Positions 546 to 59,876 of a stretch of 59,876 bases of DNA are shown here, piece after piece. The stretch is from a virus (taxonomy: Duplodnaviria; Caudoviricetes): the IMG/VR virus record IMGVR_UViG_3300031953_000008, positions 1 to 59,876 of that record; one strand, 5' to 3'. Within the stretch, counting starts at the first letter, position 1; each line of letters opens with the position of its first letter. The position numbers and the translations under genes were made by a program. The notes under the pieces are model-generated. The model was given only the letters and a program-made list of their open reading frames with translations, was not told the origin of the DNA and made no database searches.

Positions 546-558
546 CTCAACCCGCCCA

Positions 559-765
559 ATGCAATTAGAACAAGCAAGGCAATGCGCCATCAAGAACAGT
601 ATTCTCGACAACACCAAATGGTACGTGGCCACAAGCGATAAATTCGGTTTCACCGCCTCCAAGATAAAAGGGATAAACACCATCCATGTGTTCAACAAAG
701 GACAACCGTTTTCCCTGAGAAAATACCCGTTGATCTATAAACATAAAAACAAACTGAAATTATGA
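559..765 (+). CDS. Hypothetical protein
   Basis: ATG lies inside CCCGCCCAATG; ATGA-coupled to the next ORF. Confidence 0.6.
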   Translation: MQLEQARQCAIKNSILDNTKWYVATSDKFGFTASKIKGINTIHVFNKGQPFSLRKYPLIYKHKNKLKL

Positions 766-953
766 CTATTAAAGAATTAAGAGAAAAGATTAAAGACCTA
801 CCTGATACCATGGATGTTTTTATGGACGAAAGGTTGACTGAATTTAGGTACGGACTTGTAAACTCCGCCAATGTCCGTGAAATTGATTTTATGGAAGAAC
901 CGGGCAGGGAAATATTAGCAGAAGATACTGCTTTAATATTGAGCGAGGATTAA
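762..953 (+). CDS. Hypothetical phage protein (MTIKELREKIKDLPD type)
   Basis: Common small phage ORF N-terminus; coupled start. Confidence 0.65.
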   Translation: MTIKELREKIKDLPDTMDVFMDERLTEFRYGLVNSANVREIDFMEEPGREILAEDTALILSED

Positions 954-1540
954 AACCTGATCAAATCATAGCTAAGCCCAATGCCTATATAAGGATTTAA
1001 ACTAAAGTTAGAACCTATCCCATACCCCACTTGAAAACCAATGCCGAAACGCTTTATACGTGGTTTGAATGTATAAGTATCTAAGCCTACCGTGCGTATC
1101 ATTGGGCTTGAATTAACCGCCTTGATCTTGTATTCAGAATTAAAGAAGCCTTTTGTCTTACCGATAACAAACGAAAGCGTGTTGTCAAATTCAAAGGGTT
1201 TTCCGGAATATTCAGGCACGAAAATACTATCGATGGTAACTACCTGCGTAATATTCCCGGAAGCATCTACTTTTTTAAATCCCTTGACCAAACGTTTTAA
1301 TTGCTGGGTTGAATCGATTTGCTTGGATAGGAGTAATTCCAAGGCATCATTGTTTCCATTTAACGCAACTTTCTCAGCGACTTCCTGTCCCAATTCATTT
1401 TGATAATAGGAAATGGTATCGTTCAGAAACTCAATCTTTGAATCATTGGTCTGATTGTCGTATTTCCGCCCACTGCAATTATTCAGAAGCAGGAAAACAA
1501 GCAGAGCAATCACGATTAAATAAATAAAGTGGTTTTTCAT
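950..1540 (-). CDS. Lysis-module membrane/lipoprotein, possible spanin-like
   Basis: N-terminal hydrophobic helix then Cys (LLNNC), coiled-coil middle, beta-strand-like C-terminus (GIGLSYDLIRF); downstream of the endolysin. Confidence 0.6.
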   Translation of the reverse strand: MKNHFIYLIVIALLVFLLLNNCSGRKYDNQTNDSKIEFLNDTISYYQNELGQEVAEKVALNGNNDALELLLSKQIDSTQQLKRLVKGFKKVDASGNITQVVTIDSIFVPEYSGKPFEFDNTLSFVIGKTKGFFNSEYKIKAVNSSPMIRTVGLDTYTFKPRIKRFGIGFQVGYGIGSNFSLNPYIGIGLSYDLIRF

Positions 1541-1541
1541 A

Positions 1542-1637
1542 TCAAATATTTACATAATTAAGTATCATAACAGCTGTTAAAATCAGTACGATTAAAGTCA
1601 TTACGATAACGTATATCCTGAAATACAATTTTTTCAT
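1542..1637 (-). CDS. Small single-TM peptide in the lysis module
   Basis: MKKLYFRIYVIVMTLIVLILTAVMILNYVNI*. Confidence 0.45.
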   Translation of the reverse strand: MKKLYFRIYVIVMTLIVLILTAVMILNYVNI

Positions 1638-1683
1638 TTTAAAATTTATTTATTTTATTTAGAGCCATAAGAAGGTATTTTGT

Positions 1684-1691
1684 TATCTTTG
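1684..1691 (+). promoter_or_regulatory. Bacteroidota -7 promoter box for the HNH gene
   Basis: TATCTTTG matches TAnnTTTG, 22 nt before ATG 1714. Confidence 0.6.
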
Positions 1692-6155: not shown

Positions 6156-7892
6156 TTAATTTTTGGTTATTTCTAAATAAAGTTTTAAACTCTTTCCTGT
6201 TTCTATACTCCCAACTTGGGAAATTACAGGGGTAATTTTATCCCCTTTTAAAAAAGTTGTTGTGGTCAATACGGGTGCAGTTCCGGTCAATGATGTAAAT
6301 TCCGCTGCATCTATAATCGCTTTTGAAGAGGTGATTGAAACACCCGCTTTTTTTACATCTGCCACTAATGCTGAACCCGTGGGTGCGGTGTTTACTCCTA
6401 CCCAAAAAGTGCTTAACGTGAAATTATAAGGTGCGTGAAAACTATCCACATCGCCTGCCACTAATGCGCTTGAAGTATCGCTTATTGCAAAGGAAATAGT
6501 ATCTGTCACCGCCCCCGCTACTTGGATATCATTTAAAGTAGCATAAGGACTGCTTCCGTCTTCTCCATCATTTTGCAGTTCAGAAGTCTTTGTGCGAACA
6601 TCTTGTAAAGCCCCAGAACCATCTGAAAGGTCAATGTATTTAATATCGTAAACGTCAAAAATAGAAAGTGTAATAAACAAATACAAATTTTCTGTTATAG
6701 CACCCATATTGCTGATCAGCGTGTTATTTTTGTATAAATACAACACGCCCGCAATACATCTATATTCAAATATATCTAAATTGTCTGCAAAATAAGCAGG
6801 GGAATTGGTTGATAAAATTCCTTTATTGGTTGATGCCACGCCATCAATAGATACCAAAAGGCTTAAAGATGTTGCGGATTGTGTGTAAAAATTAACATAC
6901 GTTCTTGAAACATCAGAAATATTCTTTAAGGATATGTTTCTCTGGTCATAATTTGAAGGGTAGGAATTACCTAGTGGAGTGGCTTTGATTCTCATTTTCA
7001 GAGACCAATTTATTGTAAAATCAAATAGTTTCGACCATTTGGCTGTTCCTGCACTATTCCAAGTTTGCACATTTACCTCTGAATCCGTTACATTAATCGG
7101 TTCGGTTAATGTCCAATCAGCCGTTACAGGTTTATAAACAGTGCCTTGAACCACTTGTAATCTGTCTAAAAATACAGCTTCTATTCCGTTGTTAAGTGTA
7201 ACATCATAAGTTCCCTCTGTTGCAGAAGTCGTGAGATTTATTAACACTCTACTATCCGATATAAACGTTTTATAATTAATGGTATGCCCTTCAACAACTA
7301 CTGTCATATTTGGAGTAAAGAAACTTCCATTAAGTATGAAATTTCCCGTTGTACTGGGCAGGTAAGTATCTGGTATCAATTCATTTAAAAAAGGCGCTTG
7401 CCATACACTAAAATCAGGCAATACAACCAACCCATTCGCATCTTTGGCTATTGGTGTGCCGTCAAACTTTTGAAGGCTCTTCACCACCTCTGCATCATTG
7501 GCTGGGGTGTAGCCTAAGGCATCCAATACGTTTTGTAAAGATACTTGGTTGAACTTAATCCATTTTCCACCTCGGTATTCCAATAAATCGTTTACAGATA
7601 AATTGATATTTCCATTGCCGAAATCCTTAGTTCCCGCCACTGATACCAAGTAGGAATCCCCTTCCACACCAGCACTATTGATAAGTGAAGGAGTATTTGT
7701 AGTAGCGTTATACGTTCCAAGTGCGCCACGTAGATTAGCAACACTGATCTTTTTAGCATCGTTCGTGCCGGATTGAATAACCACAAAATGCGTGGCACTC
7801 GGTGAGGTTAGAAGTTCACCTAGTTCAGAGGGCAGCTTGGATGCCGCCAATACCTCGAAAAATCTAGTAGTTTGATCTTGTAGTATGCTCAT
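6156..7892 (-). CDS. Tail fibre / receptor-binding protein (modular)
   Basis: Start MSILQDQ at 7892; GTYNATTNTP, ALGYTP and KTSELQNDG segments typical of fibre proteins. Confidence 0.7.
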   Translation of the reverse strand: MSILQDQTTRFFEVLAASKLPSELGELLTSPSATHFVVIQSGTNDAKKISVANLRGALGTYNATTNTPSLINSAGVEGDSYLVSVAGTKDFGNGNINLSVNDLLEYRGGKWIKFNQVSLQNVLDALGYTPANDAEVVKSLQKFDGTPIAKDANGLVVLPDFSVWQAPFLNELIPDTYLPSTTGNFILNGSFFTPNMTVVVEGHTINYKTFISDSRVLINLTTSATEGTYDVTLNNGIEAVFLDRLQVVQGTVYKPVTADWTLTEPINVTDSEVNVQTWNSAGTAKWSKLFDFTINWSLKMRIKATPLGNSYPSNYDQRNISLKNISDVSRTYVNFYTQSATSLSLLVSIDGVASTNKGILSTNSPAYFADNLDIFEYRCIAGVLYLYKNNTLISNMGAITENLYLFITLSIFDVYDIKYIDLSDGSGALQDVRTKTSELQNDGEDGSSPYATLNDIQVAGAVTDTISFAISDTSSALVAGDVDSFHAPYNFTLSTFWVGVNTAPTGSALVADVKKAGVSITSSKAIIDAAEFTSLTGTAPVLTTTTFLKGDKITPVISQVGSIETGKSLKLYLEITKN

Positions 7893-7899: not shown

Positions 7900-9939
7900 T
7901 TATGATTTAGTCCAGAGTAAAAGAGATTTTCCTTTCGATGCTTCGATAGCACCGCTTATGGATTCAATTTCCGCCGAACCGCTAATGATTTCCTGACTGC
8001 TATCTAAGAACACATTACCACCACGTTTCAAATTTACGGAAAAAGTTTTAAGATTAGAATTAAAGCTCGGGCTTATTTCAGGAACATCGGCTAATTTATA
8101 GCCCAAACCGTTAATTATTAGCGAATCATGTGCTACAACACCTCTTAACATTCGTGCTACTTCGCTTGATAAATATTTAAACACGAAGCGTTGCGCATCA
8201 TAAATTGAGTTGTCTGTGACGTAAAACTCCTGATCGCCGTCGTAGCCTTCGGTTTCCTGATCGCCGTCGTCATCCTCAAAGCCTTCCAATCGTATCTTGT
8301 GAGAAATTCCAGTTTGATAAACCATATCACCTTTGTTTGACGAGTTTTTGTACTCAATTAAGTACAATTTGTCTGAATCAACAACTCGTTTGATTTTTTC
8401 TGAAATACGGGTGAATTGTATGTCATTGGCGGAAATCCCCACTTCCACGACGATGTTGAAGATTTCGGGTAATACGGACATATCTGCTGTAAACTCGTAA
8501 ACCTCGTAAGGCTGAATATTGTGAATAGCACTGATGAAACGTTGCTCGTCTGCCAATATGTTTATAAGGTTGAATATCAGAACAAAAGCATCACGTTCCT
8601 CGGAATACTGTATATCCAAGATCTTCACTTGTCCTACCCCGCTTATGGTAACGTAATTACCCACTTTGTTCGCCCATTCTGGCAATGAAAACCCGTAATC
8701 CACCGATCCAATAACAGCTTCGGTTGTATAATCCACCTCATCTACCACCCCGAAGTAAATCCCCATCAATCCGTTTGATGAAAACAGGGTAGCCGTGGTT
8801 TTGATTTGTTGGTTCGTGTTATTTGTCTGCTTAATAATAGAGAGTTGTGTTGTATTGAATTTGGAATCTATGGCATAAGCGTTCATATAAGCGGCATTGG
8901 TCTTGAACTGCGTGGTCAAACTATCTTCCAATAAATACTTGTGTGCGTAGGTATATTGCAGTCCTTTCAACTCATTTGAACTAAGTGTATTGAGATGGTT
9001 CTTTTTGCCTTCTTCCACATTGGCGTATCTAATGGCATTCAAATTCGACAAAGTAAAGATGGTCTGTGTCAATGTTGTGATACCATCGACATTGAATGTC
9101 TTTTCAACACTGCACCCGAAAGCATCTTTTACATATAAGGTATAATCTCCACTCGCTATTCCTGTGAAATAATTATCCGTCTTGTAGGTGATCCCGTCCA
9201 ATGAATATTCAAGCGGGTAGATCGAAGCTGATATAAAAGTATCTTCAATGGTCAGGGTAGCGCCAGAATCCAAATTATCAACCGAAACCGTTAGGTCGTT
9301 GGCGATCAGGTTTCTAGGTGGCTTAAAGGAAATGGTTTTGATGGTCATTCCTGCGCTGTCCACTACACGAATGGAATAATTTACCCCCCTGTTAAGGTTC
9401 AGGGAAAAGTTTGCTCCCTGCCCGGCCAATGTTAAAGAATTGTTTACGTAGATATCATAAATCCCTGTTCCACCTGCCGCACTAAAGTTGGCGACCAAAT
9501 TCCCACAGGTAGAGGTCGTCATATTATAATCTACAAAGGCAAGTGTGCTAACGGGTTGAAGGGTCGAATTGTTGAGTACGTAGCTTACTTTGCTCGCTGT
9601 GGGTAAACTGCCAGAAATAGGTGTGGAAGGATTAAATTCCCACGAATCATTTTCCATACTAAGAGTGACCTCCCATGTACTTTCGTTTATGGAAGCTGTA
9701 ATGTTGTTCGTACCACCCGTGTTTTTGTAATCGAGGTTCCAAGCGTTCACGTAGTTCAATGCCGAATAATACGCAGCCAATACACCTATATTGGGCGCGG
9801 TAACCTGCCCATTGGCTTGTCGCAGTGTTTTGTAAGTTTCGGTCAATACAATGCTGCCTGTCGGGGAGTTGATGTTTATCGAAAGCGTATCACCCACGTT
9901 CGCAGGGCTGCTGAAATTTAGTTTTAAGGTACTTGCCAT
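7900..9939 (-). CDS. Tail structural protein with Ig/SprB-like repeats
   Basis: GGTGIY and YSLDG...F.GI..GDYTLYVKDAFGC repeats; 679 aa downstream of the tape measure gene. Confidence 0.7.
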   Translation of the reverse strand: MASTLKLNFSSPANVGDTLSININSPTGSIVLTETYKTLRQANGQVTAPNIGVLAAYYSALNYVNAWNLDYKNTGGTNNITASINESTWEVTLSMENDSWEFNPSTPISGSLPTASKVSYVLNNSTLQPVSTLAFVDYNMTTSTCGNLVANFSAAGGTGIYDIYVNNSLTLAGQGANFSLNLNRGVNYSIRVVDSAGMTIKTISFKPPRNLIANDLTVSVDNLDSGATLTIEDTFISASIYPLEYSLDGITYKTDNYFTGIASGDYTLYVKDAFGCSVEKTFNVDGITTLTQTIFTLSNLNAIRYANVEEGKKNHLNTLSSNELKGLQYTYAHKYLLEDSLTTQFKTNAAYMNAYAIDSKFNTTQLSIIKQTNNTNQQIKTTATLFSSNGLMGIYFGVVDEVDYTTEAVIGSVDYGFSLPEWANKVGNYVTISGVGQVKILDIQYSEERDAFVLIFNLINILADEQRFISAIHNIQPYEVYEFTADMSVLPEIFNIVVEVGISANDIQFTRISEKIKRVVDSDKLYLIEYKNSSNKGDMVYQTGISHKIRLEGFEDDDGDQETEGYDGDQEFYVTDNSIYDAQRFVFKYLSSEVARMLRGVVAHDSLIINGLGYKLADVPEISPSFNSNLKTFSVNLKRGGNVFLDSSQEIISGSAEIESISGAIEASKGKSLLLWTKS

Positions 9940-12218
9940 TAGCTTTGTGCGTTAATTAATGTTAGTTTGCTTTTTTCACTTCCAGAGAGTTTGACTATCC
10001 GTCCGTATTTCAGGGTTCCTTCTTCCAAATATTCTATCAGTCCGAAATAATTAGGTATATCCTTGCCGTCCACTTTCATAAATCCGAAAAACTGCGCTTC
10101 AATGAGTTGGGTCATTTTAAAGGATAAAGTGGTTTTGTCTGCTTGCACCCTGTTCCTTCCAAGATCCTTTACTATGATAGTTCCGTTCTCGGCCAATGCC
10201 ACTCCATTCTTATACGTAACCAAATCCTGATTGGCATTGCTCGATGAAAAGTTGATAAGTTTGTCATTGAAATGATACAATCCCCTCTTGACAGAATAGC
10301 CGTGTCCGTACAATAATCTGTTCATTGGGCTTAAATTCAAATTCCAAGCACTCTCGGGGTCGAATATCCCTTTAGGCGCAGCGGAAAATTCATCTTGCCA
10401 TAATTTATGTGTAATGACCTCCTGTGATACAAATTCGTACATCTTGAAAGTTCCTGATGGTTTAGCTGCGTGCATCCAGATATTTTCGTCCCTTGGTGTA
10501 TCAGAGTTTGGGAAATTGGCAAATGTGATACGTCTTGTTATCTCATAGCCCGTGGAATCTATGTTATAATCACAGATAGCCTCGTAGGTTTCCCCTTTTC
10601 GGTTATGAGTGGATAGTTCAGAGAGTCCATTTGGCTCGTCCAGTCCGTTTATTTCCTCGTAGTCCAGGGGTTCTTTTTGCCCGATCTTTATCTTTTTGAA
10701 GTAATCTGATTTAGAACTTTCGGTTTCTATCTCGTCCACACTACCTAATCGGATGCCGATAAAATTCTGCATCGTATAGGTCGCTTTTTCTATCCTTAAA
10801 TATTGTTGTCCTTTATCGATTTCAACACCCCAATACAAAGGCTCTAAATATTCAAAAGCCTCGAAAGCCTCTTTGAACGAGGTGTTGAATTGTATGGTCA
10901 CTTCTTCGTCGTTTTCGTCCAAGAACGAATCTGGGAATCCACGTGCCCAAAACCCATTATCTACCACGGCAAATTCGTATTCTCCGCCAATGCCGAAAAT
11001 AGAAGATCTTACAAGTCCGGTCTTTCCAGTGATCTTGGCCGCCAACCTATCGAACAAATCCAAAGGTTTGATGCATCGGCTGACCGTTGGTGGGTATTCT
11101 GTTTTATCTATGACGTTTATTGTACCTGTCGAGTTGATATAAACCCGTTGATAGCCTGAATCGGTATGATATGACCTGTCAATGGCCGAATAGGAATAAA
11201 ATATAAGCGAAAGGCTTTCCCCTTTCAACAAATTGATTTCCCTGTCAAAAGGAACGGTAAATTCAGTTCCAATGTTCTGAGAGGCTTCAAATAAGGTGAT
11301 ACCTGACGGGTTGGAAGCAGAATACATCAGTAAATCCTCACCCTCTTTTATTACTTGTTCATTGTTGATCTTTTCGCTTTTTATGTATTGTACCCTGAAA
11401 TCCTCGCCCTGTACATATTTAGCATCGACCGAGTCTATCTTGAATTTTAGATTGAATTTAATTTGATATACCTTATCTTCTTCCGCTTCGAACAGGAATG
11501 GGAATCCTACATCAATATTGTTTCCAACACCCACATCTGCCGATGGACTTTCAACAGTGTTATTATAATCACCTATGGCATTGGTCGGGGTCTGTATGTC
11601 GGCTTTGTTCGAGGTATAGATAAGTTCCATTGGTATCGGGCGTCCTTTCTCGATCAATGCTGTATGGTAATACCCCGAATCTATCCTATAGTCGTTTCGG
11701 TCGCCCTTCAAGTAACTCTCCAAAAACAACTTACGTTCCTTGGGCTGGAATGGATGGGTTTTTAACTTTCCAATTGGGTCTAAATCTGCGGAGTTTTCTT
11801 CGATAAGGTCGTATTTGTCGTCATATCGGTCTTTGATATCCTCAAATAACCCTCCCTCGGTAGCTTTGATAGTAATCGCTCCTGTTTTTGATATTTCTTT
11901 ATAGGTAAATAAATCGAGTTCTTGTACGTATCTCAAAATCCACGCTTCGTCCAATGCATATTGTGATTTTTCGTATTTAGATATTAAGATACGTTCTGTA
12001 ATCCCAAAAGACTTGTAAATAGTACTGATGTATTCAGAGGCGTCCCCGTAAAAGGTTAAATCAACCTCTATTTTTTGAGTTACGAAACGTGAATCCTTGT
12101 CCCTATCCAAAGAACGATTGTCATTTCTCCATCCATCGGGTTTCTGTACTTCTTTAGTTCCAAGTACCCGTGTGGAAAGTATGTATTTAGAGGTGCGTGA
12201 TCGCTCGAATATATCCAT
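9939..12218 (-). CDS. Tail hub/baseplate-type protein
   Basis: 759 aa directly after the tape measure gene. Confidence 0.65.
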   Translation of the reverse strand: MDIFERSRTSKYILSTRVLGTKEVQKPDGWRNDNRSLDRDKDSRFVTQKIEVDLTFYGDASEYISTIYKSFGITERILISKYEKSQYALDEAWILRYVQELDLFTYKEISKTGAITIKATEGGLFEDIKDRYDDKYDLIEENSADLDPIGKLKTHPFQPKERKLFLESYLKGDRNDYRIDSGYYHTALIEKGRPIPMELIYTSNKADIQTPTNAIGDYNNTVESPSADVGVGNNIDVGFPFLFEAEEDKVYQIKFNLKFKIDSVDAKYVQGEDFRVQYIKSEKINNEQVIKEGEDLLMYSASNPSGITLFEASQNIGTEFTVPFDREINLLKGESLSLIFYSYSAIDRSYHTDSGYQRVYINSTGTINVIDKTEYPPTVSRCIKPLDLFDRLAAKITGKTGLVRSSIFGIGGEYEFAVVDNGFWARGFPDSFLDENDEEVTIQFNTSFKEAFEAFEYLEPLYWGVEIDKGQQYLRIEKATYTMQNFIGIRLGSVDEIETESSKSDYFKKIKIGQKEPLDYEEINGLDEPNGLSELSTHNRKGETYEAICDYNIDSTGYEITRRITFANFPNSDTPRDENIWMHAAKPSGTFKMYEFVSQEVITHKLWQDEFSAAPKGIFDPESAWNLNLSPMNRLLYGHGYSVKRGLYHFNDKLINFSSSNANQDLVTYKNGVALAENGTIIVKDLGRNRVQADKTTLSFKMTQLIEAQFFGFMKVDGKDIPNYFGLIEYLEEGTLKYGRIVKLSGSEKSKLTLINAQS

Positions 12219-16554: not shown

Positions 16555-16576
16555 TGAAATAGTAGTTTGGTAGTAA

Positions 16577-16776: not shown

Positions 16777-17166
16777 ATGGAAGCAAAAGAACTTAGAATA
16801 GGAAATATTATTTGTTATAAAAACAAAGCAACTGTAACTTTGGATTTGTCGGATTTCAACGAGATATGTCAGAATGAGGAATTTCTTGATTTCATTTCAC
16901 CTGTTGCATTGACCGAAGATTGGTTGTTGAAATTCGGGTTTGAGAAAAACATAAATAAAGATCAAATAGACGGAATAGAAATGCATTTCCAAATAGATGA
17001 CAAAACGTATTTTTCGTCTTGTGGAAAGCTTGGAGGTGGATTAGTTGTTCTTTGCTTATGCCGTGGCAATTACTTTGCAAACAATTTAGAGTATGTCCAC
17101 CAATTACAGAATTTATGTTTTGCATTATCAGGAGAAGAACTTGAACTAGTAAAACCCGCCCAATGA
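16777..17166 (+). CDS. Conserved phage hypothetical (ELRIGN...PVALTEDWL.KFGF family); paralog of 31241-31639
   Basis: Shared RIGN, PVALTEDWL and VH.LQNL motifs; ends KPAQ*. Confidence 0.8.
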   Translation: MEAKELRIGNIICYKNKATVTLDLSDFNEICQNEEFLDFISPVALTEDWLLKFGFEKNINKDQIDGIEMHFQIDDKTYFSSCGKLGGGLVVLCLCRGNYFANNLEYVHQLQNLCFALSGEELELVKPAQ

Positions 17167-18768: not shown

Positions 18769-18775
18769 CCGCCCA

Positions 18776-46281: not shown

Positions 46282-47598
46282 AGCAATGAAACTCCACATA
46301 AAAATAAAAAACGGGCATTGGACGGTGAACGGTAAAAAATTTAACGAACTCGGTATGATGGAAACCGATTTTATGAACCGTTATTTTCAGGAGGTAAAAC
46401 TGAATAATGAATTAAAAAAACTTTAAAAAATGGACTACTCAAACATCAAAACAAGTACCGCAATGAATAAGTCGGTTAAAGAACAATTATTGCTCAGGGA
46501 TGACCACCTTTCCAAATACGCCGCAAAGCGAATTGAGGAATTAGAGATAGTTGCATCGCTAGCGTATGCAGCAATTAGGCATAATCCAGAACCATCTAGA
46601 TCTGAATTAAATGCTTATTTTGAATTAGAAAAAAATATTTAATTATGAATTACGAAAACATCGACAATATTGTAGTGAGCAAAACACCATCAGACGATCA
46701 GTGGGTAGAATCTGCTGACCGAAATGGAAAACCAATGGCACAGGAGGAAATCAACGCCCTGACCAATGAACAGCATTATGAACTGATCCTCAAATCAAGG
46801 GGGATATTGCAATAACCTAAAACCTTTAATTATGAAATTATTTGAATTAAGACCAAGAAAAGATTTACTTAAAAACGACAACCCATGGGAGCCTTGGTAC
46901 GATAAAACTTTTGGGTTTGTTGTTCGGGCAAAAACAGCCCAAAAAGCCAGAGAATATGCAGACGAGTACTCAAGTGAAGAAAATGATGGAGGTAAAAATC
47001 CTTGGTTACATGAAAAATATTCCACTTGTAATGAACTCACTAGAAACGGTGATGAATGTATAATTATGGCAGATACTCATTCCGCTTAACTAACAACTAA
47101 AAAAAAATAAAAAATGAACGTATATGTAGTAATAGATTTGGAACGCTTGGGAAAAGTAACCGACACCCCAAGTACTTACGGAAGTTTAAAAGAACTTGTT
47201 TCGGCCAATATCGAGGACAAAGGTAAAATCCTAACTTATTCAGGTCTATGGGAAAGGCTCTCTAAGAACTCAGATGTGCATTATTGGCGGAGCGAGAGGT
47301 ACATCATAAAACAATGTGAGGTACAACGCAGTAAACAGAAAAACCCTAAAAAGTAAGATATGGCACGATTAGACAAAGAAAGGCAAGATAAATTAGAGCC
47401 TAAAAGGAAAGATTTAGCATTGGGCAGAATCAAGGAATTGGGATTAGAAATACTTTTAGTAACCGATTCGAGAATTGATTTTCTGTTCAATGACAATAAA
47501 ATTTCTTACTATCCCTATTCAGGATGGCATACAGGAAAAGGAATTAGGGATGGTAGGGGATGGAGCAATTTAAAAAATCAATTAACAACTTAGAAATT

Positions 47599-47978: not shown

Positions 47979-48947
47979 ATGGCAGACATTGTAAAAACAA
48001 CATCAGTAAAAAGTATTCTGGAATCTGAAAATGTAAAAGGTAGGCTTCAAGAAATACTTGGGAAAAATGCGGCGACTTTCGCAACTTCTGTAATACAGAT
48101 AGCGCAAACTCCTGCATTATCAAAATGCGAACCCGCCTCCATAGTTGGAGCCGCAATGACCGCAGCCACCTTGAATTTACCTATAAATAATATGCTTGGG
48201 TATAGTTATATTATACCTTTTGGGACTAAAGCCACCTACCAAATTGGGGTTAAAGGGTACGTACAATTGGCGCAGCGTTCCGGCCAATTCAAATTTTTAA
48301 AAACATCCGATGTTAAAGAAGGTGAAATGATCCACAGAAACCGATTGACAGGACAAATAGATTGGGATTGGATTCAGGACGACAAAGAACGCGCAAATAA
48401 AAAAACAATCGGTTACGTGGCGTTTATGAGCCTTATCAATGGATATGAAGATACGCATTATATGAGCCTTGATGAAGTCCAAGCGCACGGGAAAAAGTAT
48501 TCTCAAATGTACAAGAGAAATTCAGGTTTATGGGTTACAGAGTTTGATCTTATGGCTGAAAAAACGGTTTTAAAATTACTATTAAGCAAAAAAGCACCAC
48601 TTTCAACCGAGCTTCAAATCGCAGTAAGGAACGACCAAGCCGCGGTCAATGACCCCGAAAACATAGAAGATATTTCTTATTTGGACAATGAAGAACTTGA
48701 ACCCGAAGTCGACCACGAAGCAGAACGTCAGGCAGATGTAATGACCAATTTAAAAACAAGGGAAGATTTCGATTATGCGATAGGGGTTGTTGATAAAGAG
48801 GATTTGGTAAAAGAACTTCATTTGCAGATCGTGGCATTTGTCAGTGATGAAGAAAGCCTTATTTGGGCAAAAGAAATCGTAACAGATGAAGTCGCCAAGG
48901 CTAATCTGAAACTGAAAGAAATAAAAATCAAAAAAGAACTTAAATAA
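47979..48947 (+). CDS. recT: RecT-family single-strand annealing protein
   Basis: SIVGAAM.AA.LNL...LGYSYIIPF, KGYVQLAQRSGQ, W..EFD.MAEKTVLK. Confidence 0.92.
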   Translation: MADIVKTTSVKSILESENVKGRLQEILGKNAATFATSVIQIAQTPALSKCEPASIVGAAMTAATLNLPINNMLGYSYIIPFGTKATYQIGVKGYVQLAQRSGQFKFLKTSDVKEGEMIHRNRLTGQIDWDWIQDDKERANKKTIGYVAFMSLINGYEDTHYMSLDEVQAHGKKYSQMYKRNSGLWVTEFDLMAEKTVLKLLLSKKAPLSTELQIAVRNDQAAVNDPENIEDISYLDNEELEPEVDHEAERQADVMTNLKTREDFDYAIGVVDKEDLVKELHLQIVAFVSDEESLIWAKEIVTDEVAKANLKLKEIKIKKELK

Positions 48948-48958: not shown

Positions 48959-49198
48959 ATGAGTGAAACTAAAAACCCAAACGCATTTCCATTATCAAGT
49001 TATGCTATTGAAAGAGGTGCTGTGCGAGAAGAAGATCACCCCTCAGGAATGACCCTTCGCGATTACTTCGCAGCTAAAGCATTGGCCGGGATTTTATCGG
49101 GAAATGAAATCATACGAACAGGCAAGAAAACAAGTAGTTCAATCGCATCATACGCATACTCAATAGCCGATGCAATGCTAAAACAACGAGAACTATGA
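48959..49198 (+). CDS. GMTLRDYFAAKA family protein
   Basis: Paralog of 33935-34171. Confidence 0.8.
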   Translation: MSETKNPNAFPLSSYAIERGAVREEDHPSGMTLRDYFAAKALAGILSGNEIIRTGKKTSSSIASYAYSIADAMLKQREL

Positions 49199-50953: not shown

Positions 50954-51241
50954 ATGGACTTAGGTAAATCAATTAAAATAATTAGAAAAGAAGGAGGGTT
51001 TAAACAAAATGAATTTTGCGAATTAGTAGGAATCACACAAAGTTATTTATCCTCCATTGAGAACAACAAAAAGAAACCGAGTATCGAGGTTCTTGAAAAA
51101 ATCACTAATGCTCTTAATATTCCTTTAGCGTTATTATTCTGGTTTACATTGACCGAAGATGATATTACAGAAAGCAAAAAAGAATCTTACAGATTAATAA
51201 AGCCGTCTATTGATGGATTGCTTAATGCTTTTTTTAATTGA
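50954..51241 (+). CDS. XRE-family HTH regulator
   Basis: IRKE.G.KQNEF.ELVGITQSYLSSIENNKKKPS; own TACCTTTG box. Confidence 0.9.
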   Translation: MDLGKSIKIIRKEGGFKQNEFCELVGITQSYLSSIENNKKKPSIEVLEKITNALNIPLALLFWFTLTEDDITESKKESYRLIKPSIDGLLNAFFN

Positions 51242-52938: not shown

Positions 52939-53106
52939 ATGAGCCGCAAAGCACACCCTTTGGACAAGAAACTCCCCCAATGCTTCTCCCTCTCCCGAAG
53001 GACGAAGATAGCCTTTGAGAAATCCTGCGCATCATTGGGCGTTATTCCATCAAACATCATAGAGGGCTTGATGAAGGATTTTATAAATGATGTGAACAGC
53101 AAATAA
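52939..53106 (+). CDS. Ribbon-helix-helix-like small protein
   Basis: 55 aa, FEKSCASLGVIPSNIIEGLMKDFI; not in the ORF track. Confidence 0.5.
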   Translation: MSRKAHPLDKKLPQCFSLSRRTKIAFEKSCASLGVIPSNIIEGLMKDFINDVNSK

Positions 53107-53241: not shown

Positions 53242-53520
53242 ATGAAAAACCTCCCCCTCCCCAATTCCCAATTACAGGAAGTATTTAGAGAGCTTCTGTT
53301 GAACGATTTTATTTCCGTGAGGCAAATGATGGCTGATACTGGCATCCTCAATATCAAGGCGAGGATCAGCGAATTGAGGCGCATTGGCCTGCCTATCGCA
53401 ACTGATATGGTGAGCGTAACAAACAAATACGGTAGATCGGCACGTTTCGGTCAATGGCATTTAAAACCAGAGGCTAAGCAAAAAGCCAAGGAAATTTACC
53501 TCAACCTCCTAAAAAATTAA
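53242..53520 (+). CDS. Winged-HTH protein
   Basis: GILNIKARISELRRIGLPI...VTNKYGR pattern. Confidence 0.7.
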   Translation: MKNLPLPNSQLQEVFRELLLNDFISVRQMMADTGILNIKARISELRRIGLPIATDMVSVTNKYGRSARFGQWHLKPEAKQKAKEIYLNLLKN

Positions 53521-53521: not shown

Positions 53522-53890
53522 ATGAAGAAATCAAACAGAAAAATTGTTCACGATAAATATGATGGTCATTGTGCGTATTGCGGGGATGAAATTCCTTTAA
53601 AAAAAATGCAAATAGATCACATCGAACCATTGTACAGGAACGATACGGATTATCAATTGGACAGAATGGGAATAAAAAGAGGTGATGACACAATAGAAAA
53701 TTATAACCCATCTTGCAAACGATGTAACCTTTGGAAATCAACTTTTACTGTCGAGGGATTTAGGGAGCAGATACAATTACAAACGGAAAGGCTGAATAAT
53801 TATAGCAGTAATTACAGGATGGCAAAATCTTATGGATTGATTGAAGAAATCAATAGAACTGTAAAATTTTATTTTGAAACAATATCATAA
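53522..53890 (+). CDS. HNH endonuclease
   Basis: CAYCG...IDHIEP...N..PSCKRCN..K. Confidence 0.88.
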   Translation: MKKSNRKIVHDKYDGHCAYCGDEIPLKKMQIDHIEPLYRNDTDYQLDRMGIKRGDDTIENYNPSCKRCNLWKSTFTVEGFREQIQLQTERLNNYSSNYRMAKSYGLIEEINRTVKFYFETIS

Positions 53891-53908: not shown

Positions 53909-54436
53909 ATGAAAAGCACTACAATAAAACACATCGTAGAAGAATATTTTGAAATTGACCTATCAGACCCATCGAGAAAAAGGGAATTTATATGCCCCAG
54001 GATGATTTATTACAAATTATGCAACTTGTATTGCAGGGAAGAAACAGAACTCAGTATCGCAGAAACCGTCAACAAAGACCGAGTAACTTACAGACACGGA
54101 CTAAAAACATTTGAATCCTCGTTAAACAAACATTATTTCAGGAACTATGCCATCACGTACATCGAATTAAAAGAATCCATAAAAAAAGTGTATAATTTCA
54201 AGACTTTTATGTCCGTAAATTCATTGGACGAGGTGAAGAACGAATACCGGGTGAAACTATTCGATGTCACCAAGAAGCACCAAAAAGAACTATCCGCACT
54301 CAAACAAAGGTTAGGAGTGGAACATGAGATTGTGGAGAAGGTTTTTATGCTTCCGCCCAATGACATTGAAGATTTCCTAAAATTGGCAAATGTATTCTAT
54401 AAACGCAAACAACGCGAACTAAAATACGCAAACTAA
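53909..54436 (+). CDS. DnaA C-terminal (domain IV)-like DNA-binding protein
   Basis: IVEEYFEIDL...SRKREF..PR...IAETVNKDR.T..HG. Confidence 0.65.
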   Translation: MKSTTIKHIVEEYFEIDLSDPSRKREFICPRMIYYKLCNLYCREETELSIAETVNKDRVTYRHGLKTFESSLNKHYFRNYAITYIELKESIKKVYNFKTFMSVNSLDEVKNEYRVKLFDVTKKHQKELSALKQRLGVEHEIVEKVFMLPPNDIEDFLKLANVFYKRKQRELKYAN

Positions 54437-54454: not shown

Positions 54455-55327
54455 ATGAATAAAGCATTGTTTGGCGATTGCCTTGAACTAATGAAAGATA
54501 TTCCATCAGGGAGTATTGATATGATACTTTGTGATTTGCCTTATGGTACGACTCAATGTAAGTGGGACACGGTAATTCCTTTTTGTGAGAATATAAATGG
54601 GGTTTATTTCGATGAATTTATTATTGATTGGTTTAAATCTGAAAAAGGGATTTATGCTGATGCTTTGTCACATTGGGCGGAATATAGTGAAGATGGTCTT
54701 TGGGAAAATTACAACAGGATAATTAAAGAGAATGGTGCTATTGTTTTATTTGGAAGTGAGCCTTTTTCATCTGCTTTGCGAATGAGTAATATCAAGAATT
54801 ATAAATATGATTGGATTTGGAATAAAAAAAAGGCAGGTAATTTTAGGGCAGTAAAATCTATGCCTTTGATTGATTATGAAAAAATATCTGTATTCAATCA
54901 CGATAAATCGCATTATTATCCTCAAATGACAAAAGGTAAAATGAGGAAAAAAGGGGGTTATTACTCTCCACATGAACAACCACTAAATAGCGGCACTAAA
55001 GAAAAATATAATGATGAATATTATCCTAAAGGAATTTTAGAATATACGAAAGCAAATAATGTAGATTCTAAATTACACCCCACGCAAAAACCCATTCCAT
55101 TAATGGAAAATTTAATAAAGACATACACCAATGAAGGAGAAACTGTTTTGGATAATTGCGCAGGAAGTTTCACTACCTCAATTGCTTGTTTGAATACAGA
55201 CCGAAAATATATTTGTATGGAGCAGGTACAGGAATATTTTGATAAAGGAACAGCAAGGATCGCCCAATGGCACAAGAACAAAGAATCAGAAATAGAAATC
55301 AAAAACAATAATTTAGAATTATTTTAA
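54455..55327 (+). CDS. N6/N4 DNA methyltransferase (beta type)
   Basis: GDCLELM, DLPY, HPTQKP, VLDNCAGS. Confidence 0.92.
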   Translation: MNKALFGDCLELMKDIPSGSIDMILCDLPYGTTQCKWDTVIPFCENINGVYFDEFIIDWFKSEKGIYADALSHWAEYSEDGLWENYNRIIKENGAIVLFGSEPFSSALRMSNIKNYKYDWIWNKKKAGNFRAVKSMPLIDYEKISVFNHDKSHYYPQMTKGKMRKKGGYYSPHEQPLNSGTKEKYNDEYYPKGILEYTKANNVDSKLHPTQKPIPLMENLIKTYTNEGETVLDNCAGSFTTSIACLNTDRKYICMEQVQEYFDKGTARIAQWHKNKESEIEIKNNNLELF

Positions 55328-56825: not shown

Positions 56826-56843
56826 TAAATTAAAAATAAAATT

Positions 56844-57644
56844 ATGAACAAATTACAGATTTACAGCGAGAACAAACAAACCTTATCAGGGATAGGATTT
56901 ATCAAGGACACGATCAACAATCAAATGAAAATCAGGGAAATTCCCGAGTATGATTTTTTAAGGCAATTAGCACAGATGGTAAGCGTGATTTCCTACGCGG
57001 CGGGAATCAAAGAAGATATTTCAGACTTCGACAAAAAAGACGTCAAGGATTTGATTTTAAGAAAATACAAAAACCTGTCATTGGACGAGCTTGCCTATGC
57101 CTTCAAATTAGAGAGGCACGGGGATTTAGGAGAAAAAACACAGCATTTCCAATTGTTCAACGCAGATTACGTCAATACGATTTTGACTAAGTGGGTAGAG
57201 CACAAACGCGAAATCAAAAGAATCCACAACATCTCCGCCACTGTAAAAACAGAAACTATTTCCGAAGAAGACAAAGCGAAGTCTGTTTCAAATGCCGTCA
57301 GGAATGTACTGGAACGTTTCTTAGAGCATCAAACCATCAATCGGGACTATGTGTTCGTTTATGAAGAATTGTACGAAAGAGGCTATTTAAATCAAGAAGT
57401 AGCTTACAAGAAAAAACTGATGGAATCTGCGGTAATTTTGTTGGAAATGGAGCTAAACGAGAAAAAGCCTGTTTCAAGGGAAGAATCATCTGGGATAAAG
57501 TTGGAATTAAAAAAACTAGTTGAGCCTAAAAACAAGAAGGTGATATTGAAAGCAAAGGAACTATCGATGCTAGATTTTCTTAGGAAATTGGTGAAGTCTG
57601 AAAGTGAATTGGAAGCTTTTAAAACTTTTTATAACATTAAATAA
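56844..57644 (+). CDS. Replication-associated protein (helicase-loader position)
   Basis: 266 aa following the initiator. Confidence 0.55.
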   Translation: MNKLQIYSENKQTLSGIGFIKDTINNQMKIREIPEYDFLRQLAQMVSVISYAAGIKEDISDFDKKDVKDLILRKYKNLSLDELAYAFKLERHGDLGEKTQHFQLFNADYVNTILTKWVEHKREIKRIHNISATVKTETISEEDKAKSVSNAVRNVLERFLEHQTINRDYVFVYEELYERGYLNQEVAYKKKLMESAVILLEMELNEKKPVSREESSGIKLELKKLVEPKNKKVILKAKELSMLDFLRKLVKSESELEAFKTFYNIK

Positions 57645-57646
57645 GT

Positions 57647-58195
57647 ATGAAATTAAGTAAAGAATGGGCAATGCCAAACGGAAACACGTTTGATATAAAA
57701 CCAATAAAGGAATTTATACAATTTTATAATTCAGAAAATTTAGAATCTGCCGACCCTTTCGCAAATAGAAACAGGATTGCTAAATATGTGAATGATTTAG
57801 ACCCTGAAATGGGAACTGAGTTTAATCTAGATGCGATAGACTTCTTAAAAACATTTGAAGATGAAAGTTTGGATTTGGTATTTTTTGACCCGCCATACAG
57901 TCCTAGGCAAGTAAGTGAGTGTTATAAAAAACTTGGAAAAACCGTGAATATGCAAACAACACAGGCGAGTTTTTGGTCGAATATGAAGATAGAAATAGCT
58001 AGGATTTTAAAACCTAACGGGATGGTACTTTGCTTCGGATGGAACTCACAAGGGATAGGTAAAACAAGGGGATTTGTTATGGAAGAAATTGTTTTGGTGG
58101 CTCACGGTGGACATCATAACGATACAATTTGCACGGCAGAAAGAAAAAGTGTATTACAATCCATAACCAAAATAGCCCAAGAACAATTATTTTAA
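57647..58195 (+). CDS. DNA adenine methyltransferase-like protein
   Basis: DPFA, DAIDFL, FDPPYS, EIARILKP.G. Confidence 0.85.
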   Translation: MKLSKEWAMPNGNTFDIKPIKEFIQFYNSENLESADPFANRNRIAKYVNDLDPEMGTEFNLDAIDFLKTFEDESLDLVFFDPPYSPRQVSECYKKLGKTVNMQTTQASFWSNMKIEIARILKPNGMVLCFGWNSQGIGKTRGFVMEEIVLVAHGGHHNDTICTAERKSVLQSITKIAQEQLF

Positions 58196-58491
58196 TAATT
58201 AAACATAATGAAAATAGAAAAGATTTTTGAAGGACTAAATATTGAGCCTGTACAGGACAGAAAAAAAGGAGGTGAACTTTGGAATAATTATGAATTGTTT
58301 ACATACGATGATGTAATTATAGCAATGAACGCAGTTAAAAACTTAGAATTAATGGTAGTTAACCACCAAATAAAACCATTAGTTTGTAATAGGATTAACG
58401 ATAACAATAGCAATAGGTGTATTACTTGCGGTGTGAAAGCAGGACATAACTGCGCTTTAATTTAAAATCAACCTTTAAAAACCCCTTAAAT

Positions 58492-58998
58492 ATGAAAACC
58501 ACAAAACAGATTAAAACACTCAGTTACAACGACCTTGCCTTCTTTTTGGGAATTTCAACACTGGACGCTAAATGGAAAATAGCGGAACATTTTTATAAGC
58601 CAAAAGATTTACCGTTGACCGCCAAGGGAACCCCGAAAATCAAGGTCAGTGACCAGATCGAGGTAGATAAAATAGATTTCACAATGCACTCAAATTCAGA
58701 TTTGGACGGCGGATGTAAGTTTACGTATTTGGTAAACTACTTTAACAATGGGGTTTCAATGGACTATTTAAGAGGTTTTGGAGAATCAAAGACCTTTATC
58801 AAGAAACTAAAATTCACGGGCAAACACGGGATTTTGAACGATATTATGAACGAGGAACAATATTTGAAATTGCAGAAAATCTGGCTCTATGCAAATATTT
58901 ACGGAAGATCAAGACCCACCAAAGAAGCTAGTGAGTTTATAAACAAGCACGATTGGGCAAAACTTTATTTAAAAACCAAAGGAATCGAATTTAACTAA
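58492..58998 (+). CDS. Hypothetical protein
   Basis: 168 aa. Confidence 0.65.
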   Translation: MKTTKQIKTLSYNDLAFFLGISTLDAKWKIAEHFYKPKDLPLTAKGTPKIKVSDQIEVDKIDFTMHSNSDLDGGCKFTYLVNYFNNGVSMDYLRGFGESKTFIKKLKFTGKHGILNDIMNEEQYLKLQKIWLYANIYGRSRPTKEASEFINKHDWAKLYLKTKGIEFN

Positions 58999-59013
58999 CA
59001 TTTAACCCCAAAT

Positions 59014-59876
59014 ATGAACAAACCTCCCATAAACGTAATATCCTTATTTGACGGGATAAGCTGCGGCCAATTAGCACTTGAAACAGCAGGTGTAAACGTA
59101 GGTAAATACCTCGCTTCTGAAATAGAAAAAGACCCCATCGAAGTCACCCAAAGACGTTTTCCCAACACATTGCAATTAGGTAACGTGAAAGACGTGGTAA
59201 CTGAAAATCTGCCTTTTGCTGATTTGTGCATAGGCGGATCCCCTTGCCAGAGTTTCAGCCGTTCGGGTGACAATTCGGGATTTGATGGAAAGTCGGGTTT
59301 GTTCTTCGAGTATGTGAGGATCTTGAAAGATTTAAAAGAAGTAAACCCCAATATCCAGTTCTTGCTCGAGAACGTGGTGATGAAAAAGGAATGGCAAAAT
59401 ATCATATCGGAACATATTGGACTAGAGCCTGTTTTGATGGATGCAAAGTATTTTTCCGCACAAAAAAGGCAGCGTTTGATATGGACTAACATTCCAATAG
59501 ATCCTTATGTGGACAAGGATATTTCAATCAAGGATGTCATGGACATGGACAATACCGATTTCGCCAATGTGGATAGTGATTTTATGTGGTTCGAGGATGG
59601 GGAATATCGTGTTCGAAACGCCACCAAAAAAGGGTATTTAACGGTTTCAAATTACGATGTGGTGAACCTTGATTTCCCTACTTCAAAAACACGCAGGGGG
59701 AGGGTGTCACATCAAAAATCGAACACCCTGAACACAGGATGTAACCAAGGAATCTTTATCGACGGTAAAATAATCAAGCTCAATGCCCTTGAATGTGAAC
59801 GACTCCAAACAATAGAAGATAATCACACCATGGGTTTCACGGAAGCAAAACGTAAAAAGATGATAGGAAATGCTTG
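59014..59876 (+). CDS. DNA (cytosine-5) methyltransferase, continues across the junction to 174
   Basis: SLFDGISCG, GGSPCQ, LLENV, Q.RQR motifs; absent from the ORF track because it has no stop before the window end. Confidence 0.92.
   Translation, partial: MNKPPINVISLFDGISCGQLALETAGVNVGKYLASEIEKDPIEVTQRRFPNTLQLGNVKDVVTENLPFADLCIGGSPCQSFSRSGDNSGFDGKSGLFFEYVRILKDLKEVNPNIQFLLENVVMKKEWQNIISEHIGLEPVLMDAKYFSAQKRQRLIWTNIPIDPYVDKDISIKDVMDMDNTDFANVDSDFMWFEDGEYRVRNATKKGYLTVSNYDVVNLDFPTSKTRRGRVSHQKSNTLNTGCNQGIFIDGKIIKLNALECERLQTIEDNHTMGFTEAKRKKMIGNA
59751..59876 (+). repeat. Terminal direct repeat, copy 2
   Basis: Identical to 3-128. Confidence 0.95.

Follow-up and report, generated by a model that had tools for sequence, protein, structure and literature searches.

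A nine-base word iterated throughout a Bacteroidota-type siphophage genome is selected at the level of DNA

Introduction

Why should a phage genome repeat one short word dozens of times, in either orientation, inside genes and between them? The question is raised by IMG/VR record IMGVR_UViG_3300031953_000008 (Duplodnaviria; Caudoviricetes), a single contig of 59,876 bases that is rated 100% complete and has no end repeats; "the window" below is this whole stretch, positions 1 to 59,876. A sequence-only reading of the window had pointed to a motif of the form CG-N1-3-CAATG, at about one per kb on both strands, and had proposed a selected DNA signal analogous to Chi, DNA uptake sequences (DUS) or HIP1, possibly shared with the host. 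Here, we find that the element is a more sharply defined word, CGSYCAWTG, which is under selection as a DNA-level signal and not as a protein-level or single-RNA-strand one, and we weigh what may read it.

Results

One spacing dominates the iterated word

The phage genome has a G+C content of 37.3%, where ~35% had been supposed. All 14 CGCCCAATG sites named in the sequence-only reading were reproduced at their exact coordinates (8 forward and 6 reverse), and its further word counts held up as well, with 11 copies of CGGCCAATG, 13 of CGCCAATG, 11 of CGGTCAATG, 7 of CGTCCAATG and 5 of CGACCAATG. The iteration of CG-N1-3-CAATG was confirmed (93 matches at 91 distinct CAATG sites, ~1.5 per kb), with an uneven spread over the spacings. 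Among the 5-mers of the genome, CAATG/CATTG stands out most, with 272 occurrences on both strands against 179 expected from the genome's own 4-mers. CG lies exactly 4 bases before CAATG at 57 of these 272 sites, where ~9.3 would be expected from the frequency of CG, while each other spacing gives 5–20 sites. This core word, CGNNCAATG (CG-NN-CAATG; 57 copies), was expected 5.6 times in third-order Markov simulations and ranks first among all dinucleotide-gap-pentamer combinations in the genome, the next entries being nearly all fragments of the same word.

A variant, CGNNCATTG, is also in excess (17 copies vs 6.1 expected) and shows the same NN preferences as CGNNCAATG. Merging the two gives the consensus CGSYCAWTG, with 74 copies balanced between the strands (37:37, counted as CGNNCAWTG); CGNNCAATG alone is split 34:23 (p = 0.18). 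The two bases NN are CC in 14 copies, GC in 11, GT in 11, TC in 7 and AC in 5, and the flanks favour pyrimidines ahead of CG and A or C behind the word. The fullest form, CCGCCCAATGA, occurs 7 times, and CGNCCAATG was observed 37 times against 1.2 expected (third-order Markov). One-mismatch neighbours of the word show mild enrichment and no depletion overall, as expected for a graded binding site. The word is asymmetric rather than fully palindromic, with only 2 two-sided copies (CGNNCAWTGNNCG), and its copies are placed roughly at random, with gaps of 45 to 5,731 bases between them.

The excess goes beyond chance, codon usage and protein content

The 93 matches to CG-N1-3-CAATG compare with 15.8 expected under a first-order Markov model, 17.5 under a third-order model, 26.6 under permutation of codons in genes and 34.1 under a synonymous permutation that keeps every protein; the last two values include ~19 copies in unshuffled parts of the window. 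Gene calls came from our own heuristic plus six manual additions, and the intragenic shuffles covered the interiors of 113 called genes, where permuting synonymous codons keeps all proteins and hence dipeptides; codon-pair bias lay outside these nulls. In gene interiors, CGNNCAATG was found 14 times in sense and 30 times in antisense, against 2.2 and 3.4 copies under the synonymous permutation and 1.9 and 2.1 under codon permutation. The excess over the protein-preserving shuffles is thus 6- to 9-fold in the two orientations, and all six orientation-by-frame classes are in excess. The 6.4 kb of spacers hold 4 copies against 0.22 expected, or 10 against 0.63 with the CG-N1-3 spacing. As the excess withstands shuffles that keep the proteins and is seen in every frame and also in spacers, it is DNA on which the signal acts. 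The proposal of a selected DNA signal is therefore supported, and the excess persists after Markov correction and after the codon- and dipeptide-aware correction that the sequence-only reading had named as its test.

Within genes, the word is accommodated according to coding cost. The phase suggested earlier, NCA-TTG-NNC-G, holds 23 of the 30 antisense intragenic copies, as coding cost predicts, and the orientation split in genes (30/44 antisense) fits the expectation of the coding-cost shuffle (p = 0.36). There are 193 peptide positions able to encode the word, and it is used in 44, against ~5.7 expected. In rare frames, it is carried at 3/3 His-(Cys/Trp)-x positions and at 3/4 Arg-x-Met positions, and there even the peptides seem to be present for the word's sake.

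Placement of the word among the genes

The phage is a Bacteroidota-type siphophage of marine flavobacterial type. Leftward genes run from ~37 kb and rightward genes from ~38 kb; a small block at 16.8-19.2 kb is also rightward. The genes that matter below are as follows.

24621-26123: portal gene, SPP1-type
26312-27793, minus strand: large terminase gene; protein 50% identical to the terminase of Polaribacter phage P12002L
36503-37132: small-terminase-like gene
47979-48947: RecT gene
49650-50642: exonuclease gene
1714-2235, 27790-28374, 51247-51708 and 53522-53890: four HNH-type endonuclease genes
30547-31062, 35388-35969, 54455-55327 (N6_N4), 57647-58195 and 59014-59874 (C-5 cytosine): five DNA methyltransferase genes
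50954-51241: the only HTH_3 protein of the phage
53909-54436: DnaA-domain-IV-like protein
56844-57644: replication-module protein (phrog_26016)

A NinG/Rap-type nuclease completes the recombination genes. One of the four HNH genes overlaps its neighbour, the large terminase gene, at an ATGA. The open reading frame (ORF) of the C-5 cytosine methyltransferase continues past the end of the window, which could mean a record cut inside the gene or a circularly permuted genome. There was no Phage_integrase match, and hence no sign of a tyrosine integrase, in the 100%-complete record (serine recombinases were not searched for), and a tRNA gene search of the window found none. A scan of 35900-39600 for sigma-70-type promoters and terminators gave nothing above shuffles.

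Of the 57 CGNNCAATG copies, 44 are intragenic and the other 13 occupy gene starts, gene junctions or spacers. The ATG of the word serves as the start codon at 12 of the 116 called starts. Six of the 18 same-strand ATGA stop/start overlaps carry an identical 10-mer, CGCCCAATGA, which is found at every motif-bearing overlap; six proteins therefore end in Ala-Gln (GCC CAA TGA). Two of these junctions (17157 and 17937) also have one 16-mer, AAAACCCGCCCAATGA, in common. A repeat of 23 nucleotides (nt; ...CGSCCAATGTTCA) has three spacer copies, each with the word, and two of them bracket the small-terminase-like gene exactly. Gaps of the rightward block contain three small minus-strand ORFs (48-58 codons) that begin at the word's ATG. 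The six spacer GC islands seen earlier are genuine and fall either at gene starts or outside our gene calls. A single graded site, subject to coding constraints, accounts for both the fullest form at junctions and the variants in genes: the weaker the constraint, the longer the word and the nearer it is to one consensus, while genes hold the variants permitted by common codons. The copies are listed below (CDS, coding sequence).

553..561, plus: CGCCCAATG; ATG is the start of ORF 559-765
6284..6292, plus: CGGTCAATG; antisense, CDS 6156-7892, phase 1
9195..9203, plus: CGTCCAATG; antisense, CDS 7900-9939, phase 1
9423..9431, plus: CGGCCAATG; antisense, CDS 7900-9939, phase 1
10190..10198, plus: CGGCCAATG; antisense, CDS 9939-12218, phase 1
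10235..10243, minus: CGAGCAATG; sense, CDS 9939-12218, phase 1
11579..11587, minus: CGACCAATG; sense, CDS 9939-12218, phase 1
11651..11659, plus: CGATCAATG; antisense, CDS 9939-12218
11948..11956, plus: CGTCCAATG; antisense, CDS 9939-12218
12566..12574, plus: CGACCAATG; antisense, CDS 12219-15941 (1240 amino acids)
12797..12805, plus: CGGCCAATG; antisense, CDS 12219-15941
14702..14710, plus: CGGACAATG; antisense, CDS 12219-15941; within CGGACAATGAGCG, one of the two two-sided copies
15299..15307, plus: CGGCCAATG; antisense, CDS 12219-15941
16907..16915, minus: CGGTCAATG; antisense, CDS 16777-17166
17157..17166, plus: CGCCCAATGA; ATGA overlap of 16777-17166 (ends GCC CAA TGA) and 17163-17669; in the 16-mer AAAACCCGCCCAATGA
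17293..17301, minus: CGACCAATG; antisense, CDS 17163-17669
17937..17946, plus: CGCCCAATGA; ATGA overlap of 17686-17946 and 17943-18257; second copy of the 16-mer AAAACCCGCCCAATGA
18607..18616, plus: CGCCCAATGA; ATGA overlap of 18254-18616 and 18613-18768
18770..18778, plus: CGCCCAATG; ATG is the start of ORF 18776-19165
19245..19253, plus: CGGTCAATG; antisense, CDS 19162-19626
19802..19810, minus: CGACCAATG; sense, CDS 19698-20621
20230..20238, plus: CGGTCAATG; antisense, CDS 19698-20621, phase 2
20465..20473, plus: CGTCCAATG; antisense, CDS 19698-20621
22419..22427, plus: CGGTCAATG; antisense, CDS 21914-23206, phase 2
23833..23841, plus: CGGTCAATG; antisense, CDS 23633-24262
25298..25306, minus: CGGCCAATG; sense, portal gene 24621-26123
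26427..26435, plus: CGTCCAATG; antisense, large terminase gene 26312-27793
29131..29139, minus: CGCCCAATG(A); sense, in frame, ORF 28987-29316; possible internal or alternative start
29256..29264, minus: CGACCAATG(A); end of ORF 29255-29503
29778..29786, plus: CGCTCAATG; antisense, CDS 29555-29845
30547..30556, minus: CGCCCAATGA; ATGA overlap of 30547-31062 and 30347-30550
31059..31068, minus: CGCCCAATGA; ATGA overlap of 31059-31244 and 30547-31062
31181..31189, plus: CGGTCAATG; antisense, CDS 31059-31244
31241..31250, minus: CGCCCAATGA; ATGA overlap of 31241-31639 and 31059-31244
31489..31497, plus: CGGTCAATG; antisense, CDS 31241-31639
31756..31764, minus: CGGACAATG; sense, in frame, CDS 31636-31851
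33359..33367, minus: CGCTCAATG; sense, in frame, near the start of CDS 32033-33415
34405..34413, plus: CGCCCAATG; spacer 34172-34524
34638..34646, plus: CGGGCAATG; antisense, CDS 34525-34842
36475..36509, plus: repeat copy 1 (TATCAATTCTCCGCCAATGTTCA...); immediately beyond the stop codon of the small-terminase-like gene; holds CGCCAATG at 36486
36538..36546, plus: CGAGCAATG; antisense, small-terminase-like gene 36503-37132
37151..37185, plus: repeat copy 2 (TAACTGATTCCGGCCAATGTTCA...); 19 nt upstream of the start of the small-terminase-like gene; holds CGGCCAATG at 37161
37513..37521, minus: CGGCCAATG; large divergent spacer, preceded by a 30-nt repeat (37481-37510)
37672..37679, minus: CGCCAATG (spacing one base shorter); divergent spacer; copy 2 of the 30-nt repeat (37646-37675) precedes it
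38575..38583, minus: CGGCCAATG; small-ORF region 38468-38636
38756..38763, minus: CGCCAATG; spacer
39315..39338, plus: repeat copy 3 (TAACAATTTTCGGCCAATGTTCA); holds CGGCCAATG at 39325, whose ATG opens ORF 39331-39531
42062..42069, minus: CGCCAATG; spacer 41836-42123; ATG opens the 50-codon minus-strand ORF 41912-42064
44501..44509, plus: CGGCCAATG; sense, CDS 44455-44706
45015..45022, minus: CGCCAATG; spacer 44937-45115; ATG opens the 48-codon minus-strand ORF 44871-45017
46316..46324, minus: CGTCCAATG; antisense, CDS 46286-46426; within CGGGCATTGGACG, the second two-sided copy
48643..48651, plus: CGGTCAATG; sense, RecT gene 47979-48947
49080..49088, minus: CGGCCAATG; antisense, CDS 48959-49198
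51147..51155, minus: CGGTCAATG; antisense, HTH_3 gene 50954-51241
53033..53041, minus: CGCCCAATG(A); spacer 52943-53241; ATG opens the 58-codon minus-strand ORF 52860-53035
53448..53456, plus: CGGTCAATG; sense, CDS 53242-53520
53567..53575, minus: CGCACAATG; antisense, HNH gene 53522-53890
54222..54230, minus: CGTCCAATG; antisense, CDS 53909-54436
54354..54362, plus: CGCCCAATG(A); sense, CDS 53909-54436
54671..54679, minus: CGCCCAATG; antisense, N6_N4 methyltransferase gene 54455-55327
55261..55269, plus: CGCCCAATG; sense, methyltransferase gene 54455-55327
57079..57087, minus: CGTCCAATG; antisense, CDS 56844-57644
CAATG core on the plus strand at 869, 11180, 12737, 12893, 13019, 14706, 18689, 21554, 24127, 24656, 27070, 27896, 48154 and 58323, motif on minus: 14 of the 17 CGNNCATTG copies; NN mostly GC or GT
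Motif starts at 34344, 40867 and 46312, plus: the other 3 of the 17 CGNNCATTG copies; NN mostly GC or GT
866, 3247, 10985 and 59562 (forward) and 2476, 8424, 9018 and 15029 (reverse): remaining copies of CGCCAATG, inside genes (spacing one base shorter)

Some further sequences were seen near these sites. The divergent spacer holds two copies of a ~50-nt repeat (37481-37530 and 37646-37695; CTTTACTG...CATTGGC(C/G)GGGATCGC), each ending in the word and then GGATCGC. A non-coding stretch of 533 bases downstream of the small-terminase-like gene has 4-5 spaced copies of AAAGTCAA(C/A) at 36007-36130, which could be origin iterons or real pac boxes. Most rightward genes between 39500 and 58500 have a AAACCTTAAAA-like sequence ~6-12 bases before the ATG, which the CGCCCAATG-bearing starts do not have; TAAAA is the ribosome-binding consensus reported for Flavobacterium. 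A second, downstream element (AGAAC/AAGAAC, 12 vs 2.7 within 60 nt) was rejected, as its spacing is not fixed and most of it is coding sequence that follows start codons.

Regarding public occurrences, the stretch 9001-19000 was found in 10 public-run rows, every one labelled brine metagenome. Over 9001-29000, the contigs of the four brine runs compared are almost all identical to the window (one differing letter in one piece), and neither variant positions nor molecule ends were listed. Two short stretches, 18387-18433 and 24606-24637, also occur in contigs of four brine-metagenome runs flanked on both sides by other, unlike sequence, and coverage of the bin 18339-19005 reaches up to 68 in brine runs against ~1 in neighbouring bins. 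These stretches may be short conserved or mobile pieces common to other genomes of the brine habitat.

Host-type genomes

The suggestion that the word might be shared with the host was not supported in the genomes searched, 201 of Flavobacteriaceae and 401 of Bacteroidia, which need not include the true host (2 of the 401 are flagged unpublished, and no claim depends on them). As a test, the CGNNCAATG count was taken over that of a same-phase control, CGN5CAATG, and the ratios of the 201 genomes were read by eye. Raw counts of both words vary widely among these genomes, whereas their ratio is at most ~1.5 (highest in G115, 553 vs 373); the phage has 57 vs 6. In 200-kb samples of two high-count genomes, G096 and G002, there was neither a spacing peak (42 vs 41 and 30 vs 30.5 expected) nor the NN preference of the phage. 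Among the 401 Bacteroidia genomes, the density of CGSCCAATG reaches a maximum of 0.07 per kb (G468, 262 in 3.7 Mb), vs 0.42 per kb in the phage, and CCGCCCAATGA is iterated in none, a tandem repeat in G486 excepted. That genome was rejected as a host-word outlier: 15 of its 24 CCGCCCAATGA copies lie in a tandem array with a 231-bp period (G486:C1:2099636-2103573; at least 15 units, with CCGCCCAATGA in each), probably a gene for a repetitive protein with no relation to the phage word.

Related phages and the search for a reader

Two distant relatives, with large terminases only 50-56% identical to that of the phage, bear the word in weaker form. First, Polaribacter phage P12002L has 10 copies vs 2.1 expected (p = 7e-5), and CATTGGTCG (the reverse of CGACCAATG) is its second-ranked word. 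Second, C23, a 41.6-kb phage-like contig binned with an Aequorivita genome (G001) and encoding a large terminase 56% identical, has 15 copies vs 4.2 expected (p = 3e-5), with TCATTGGCC/CCAATGA as its top words. In the terminase genes of the three motif-bearing phages, the copies fall at different, non-homologous residues; the sites therefore turn over while their density is kept. The relatives' copies are mostly not at gene starts, and one in C23 lies in the spacer upstream of its small-terminase homologue. Flavobacterium phage 11b and Cellulophaga phages phi10:1 and phi18:3 have no copies or fewer than expected, phi10:1 and phi18:3 being counted over their first 50 kb only (phi18:3, 1 copy vs 2.4 expected in the first 50 kb of 71.4 kb). 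Bacteroidales prophages with terminases 44-47% identical show no clear excess. In wider searches, the portal protein found at best 46% identity among viral contigs, and the large terminase, searched as a single protein, found nothing among genome contigs and one 59% fragment among metagenome contigs.

The three motif-bearing phages have in common tail genes, a capsid-region gene, both terminase subunits and the replication-module protein 56844-57644; the last, the only non-structural one, has no match among solved structures, and its Atlas matches are viral hypothetical clusters only. P12002L has homologues of the HNH endonucleases and of the N6_N4 methyltransferase, which were not found on C23, a possibly incomplete contig. 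The HTH_3 protein has no homologue in P12002L or C23 at E <= 1e-4. Methyltransferase 57647-58195 (phrog_11619) is 77% identical to its C23 copy, where the terminase is only 56% identical, which suggests recent exchange or strong constraint. Integron-type attC sites have been reported in P12002L beside two methyltransferase genes (PMC9892861). These sites have another core, GTTRRRY (PMC9892861), and no relation to the word; they bear on cassette exchange in this lineage.

Discussion

Judging from these sequence comparisons, the word may well be a dispersed, orientation-free recognition site, used by a protein linked to this phage lineage that binds or processes DNA sequence-specifically, and this is the reading that we tentatively prefer. 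Selection keeps CGSYCAWTG, with CCGCCCAATGA as its fullest form, in any orientation and frame on double-stranded phage DNA, roughly once every 0.8 kb; it would act on density along the whole chromosome and not on exact position. A single reader protein, either encoded by the lineage or used by it alone, would touch both CG and CAWTG, which are separated by two bases, like a monomer with two contact surfaces. Copies accumulate where they are cheapest, namely in spacers, in the last two codons before ATGA overlaps (GCC CAA TGA) and, within genes, at peptides of the form (S/P/T/A)-L-x-(acidic or small residue), written xCA TTG NNC Gxx.

What such a reader would do can be proposed with less assurance. 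The likeliest job, if still a doubtful one, would be to mark or load phage DNA from end to end for some DNA transaction, with terminase or nuclease as the reader; candidate transactions are recognition by the packaging enzyme, recognition by a nuclease or nickase, and protection. The longest copies bracket the small-terminase-like gene. The pac sites of SPP1/P22-type phages, which are read by the small terminase, lie at the small terminase gene, and here two of the three longest motif-bearing repeats stand on either side of it; pac boxes are confined to one locus, though, whereas the present word is genome-wide. A further conjecture, which we hold no more than loosely, is that this lineage has a dense, positively selected 9-base "self word", read by its own protein, by which packaging, nicking, protection or recombination tells phage DNA, over its entire length, from that of host or competitors. 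If so, it would be the viral equivalent of DUS or Chi, strong enough to dictate the codons of a quarter of the compatible peptides and the C-terminal Ala-Gln of several proteins.

Several observations weigh against a lineage-bound reader. The enrichment in P12002L and C23 barely exceeds scan noise, as top z-scores of 7-8 also occur in unrelated phages, and L007, a Saprospiraceae-binned contig with a 50% identical terminase (an equally related pair), has 0 copies in 17.5 kb (p = 0.018 if 5-fold enriched). Comparing the genes of the motif-bearing phages yields no nameable reader: the replication-module protein 56844-57644 was excluded because phi18:3 carries a 40% identical homologue without the word. 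A 10 kb megablast against phages gave no match, and so no close relatives for a comparison of site conservation. We know of no precedent for a genome-wide spread of packaging-enzyme sites. Finally, a host reader or host word may be involved.

The stoperators of Cluster A mycobacteriophages are comparable in being asymmetric, lineage-specific repressor sites in tens of copies genome-wide, and some of them overlap stop and start codons. Their consensus drifts between relatives, as that of the present word does (PMC6550527), and they are read by a monomer with two DNA-contacting domains (PMC9283540). Most of them point one way with respect to transcription, and in lysogens they stop elongation (PMC6550527), whereas the present word is enriched in both orientations, with 44/57 copies intragenic. 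A further difference is that stoperators belong to temperate phages with an immunity repressor, whereas the phage shows no Phage_integrase match (the search did not extend to serine recombinases) and that its HTH_3 protein has no homologue in the motif-bearing relatives.

An alternative that we regard as unlikely is that an endonuclease of the phage nicks or cuts site-specifically at the word, leaving localized single-strand interruptions in mature DNA, as in T5 and tf. The phage encodes four HNH-type endonucleases, with homologues in P12002L, and the nick sites of tf, T5 and phiKMV-like phages resemble the present word as phage-specific consensus sequences of 7-9 bases iterated beyond chance, their function being still unsettled (PMC3517423). 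Phage tf has 14 copies of the 9-base TACTRTGMC, all nicked (PMC3517423); iterated 9-mers in phage genomes can therefore be nick sites. However, the tf sites are all on one strand, 14/14 on the top strand (PMC3517423), as opposed to 37:37 here, and no HNH homologue was found on C23, with the reservation on that contig given above. We would place the present word with dispersed protein-recognition words, nearest to stoperators and nick sites, whose orientation or strand rule it fails.

We would also not expect that two separate things are at work, with CGCCCAATGA at starts an RNA-level translation signal or a gene-boundary linker for module exchange and the intragenic copies something else. The translation signal would couple or re-initiate translation at ATGA overlaps, the host making no use of Shine-Dalgarno sequences. 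The 12/116 starts at the word's ATG and the identical 10-mer at 6/18 overlaps speak for a separate junction role, as does the lack of a AAACCTTAAAA-type upstream element at these starts. NN is CC at 6/6 junctions vs 4/45 non-start sites, two junctions have their 16-mer in common, and RecT and an exonuclease are present. Nevertheless, 44/57 copies are intragenic, two thirds of them antisense, for which no RNA-level or boundary role is possible; the spacer copies are mostly antisense to local transcription, those in relatives lie mostly away from starts, and one graded site under coding constraints already accounts for the fullest form at junctions. The start-associated sequences of Cluster K mycobacteriophages lie just ahead of translation starts and so differ from the present word, which is found at only 12/116 starts.

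Quite unlikely, in our view, is a Chi-like or otherwise host-read word, recognised by AddAB/RecBCD or a defence nuclease, that the phage accumulates for protection. Chi is a host-genome word with strand polarity. The likeness to Chi, including its accumulation in phages, is that both are dense, blind to frame and kept by density over position, without positional conservation, and a protective role for the phage would be plausible; moreover, the motif-bearing phages all appear in the flavobacterial branch of the terminase lineage, and the Bacteroidales prophages lack a clear excess. The present word nonetheless has no polarity, no excess in the 201 Flavobacteriaceae or 401 Bacteroidia genomes and no spacing peak in G096 or G002. 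The literature searched, with most subscription journals outside coverage, yielded no description of a Chi sequence for Bacteroidetes, nor of this word.

Less probable again is that the word is the target or by-product of one of the five phage methyltransferases, either with methylation selected or through a methylation-linked repair bias as proposed for HIP1. A 5-base palindrome with a central W, such as CAWTG, is a common shape of modification sites, and the methyltransferase at 57647-58195 is better conserved in C23 than the terminase (77% vs 56%). HIP1 abundance has been linked to cognate methyltransferases (PMC4390886). Against this, phages 11b, phi10:1 and phi18:3 have several methyltransferases but not the word, and the depletion of T variants predicted by a repair-bias origin is absent (TGNNCAATG 13 vs 10.1, CANNCAATG 10 vs 10.8), the expected pool of ~10 being too small for ~50 extra copies; we rejected that origin. 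To our knowledge, phage genomes as a rule avoid methyltransferase targets or are neutral towards them, and do not enrich them. HIP1 and DUS or uptake signal sequences (USS) do resemble the present word in being hyper-abundant in coding and non-coding DNA under selection, and HIP1 is over-represented 15- to 300-fold (PMC5861425), vs ~10-fold here. They are words of cellular genomes that phages share at most secondarily, whereas the present word is not enriched in the bacterial genomes searched and is asymmetric where HIP1 is a full palindrome. The analogy first drawn to Chi, DUS and HIP1 thus holds for the DUS/HIP1-like statistics (dense, frame-independent) and not for Chi polarity, host sharing or HIP1 palindromy.

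A compositional or codon-context artefact without function is very improbable: words of such composition do vary 0.3- to 5-fold among Flavobacteriaceae through composition alone (reversed-word control) and codon-pair bias was outside the nulls, but the excess is 6- to 9-fold in genes over protein-preserving shuffles, 18-fold in spacers and 10-fold under Markov-3, is limited to one spacing, and belongs to the top gapped word of the genome.

Iterated selected words are known mainly from cellular genomes (Chi, DUS/USS, HIP1), and in phages as strand- or orientation-bound sites. The word described here is dense, blind to orientation and frame, phage-specific, and recurs in relatives whose terminases agree at only about half of their residues. 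It stands a fair chance of reflecting a self-marking system, encoded by a virus, that has not been described before. It points to an unrecognised DNA-protein system in flavobacterial siphophages, calls for caution in codon-usage and selection analyses of the phage's genes, and would serve as a metagenome marker for this phage lineage.

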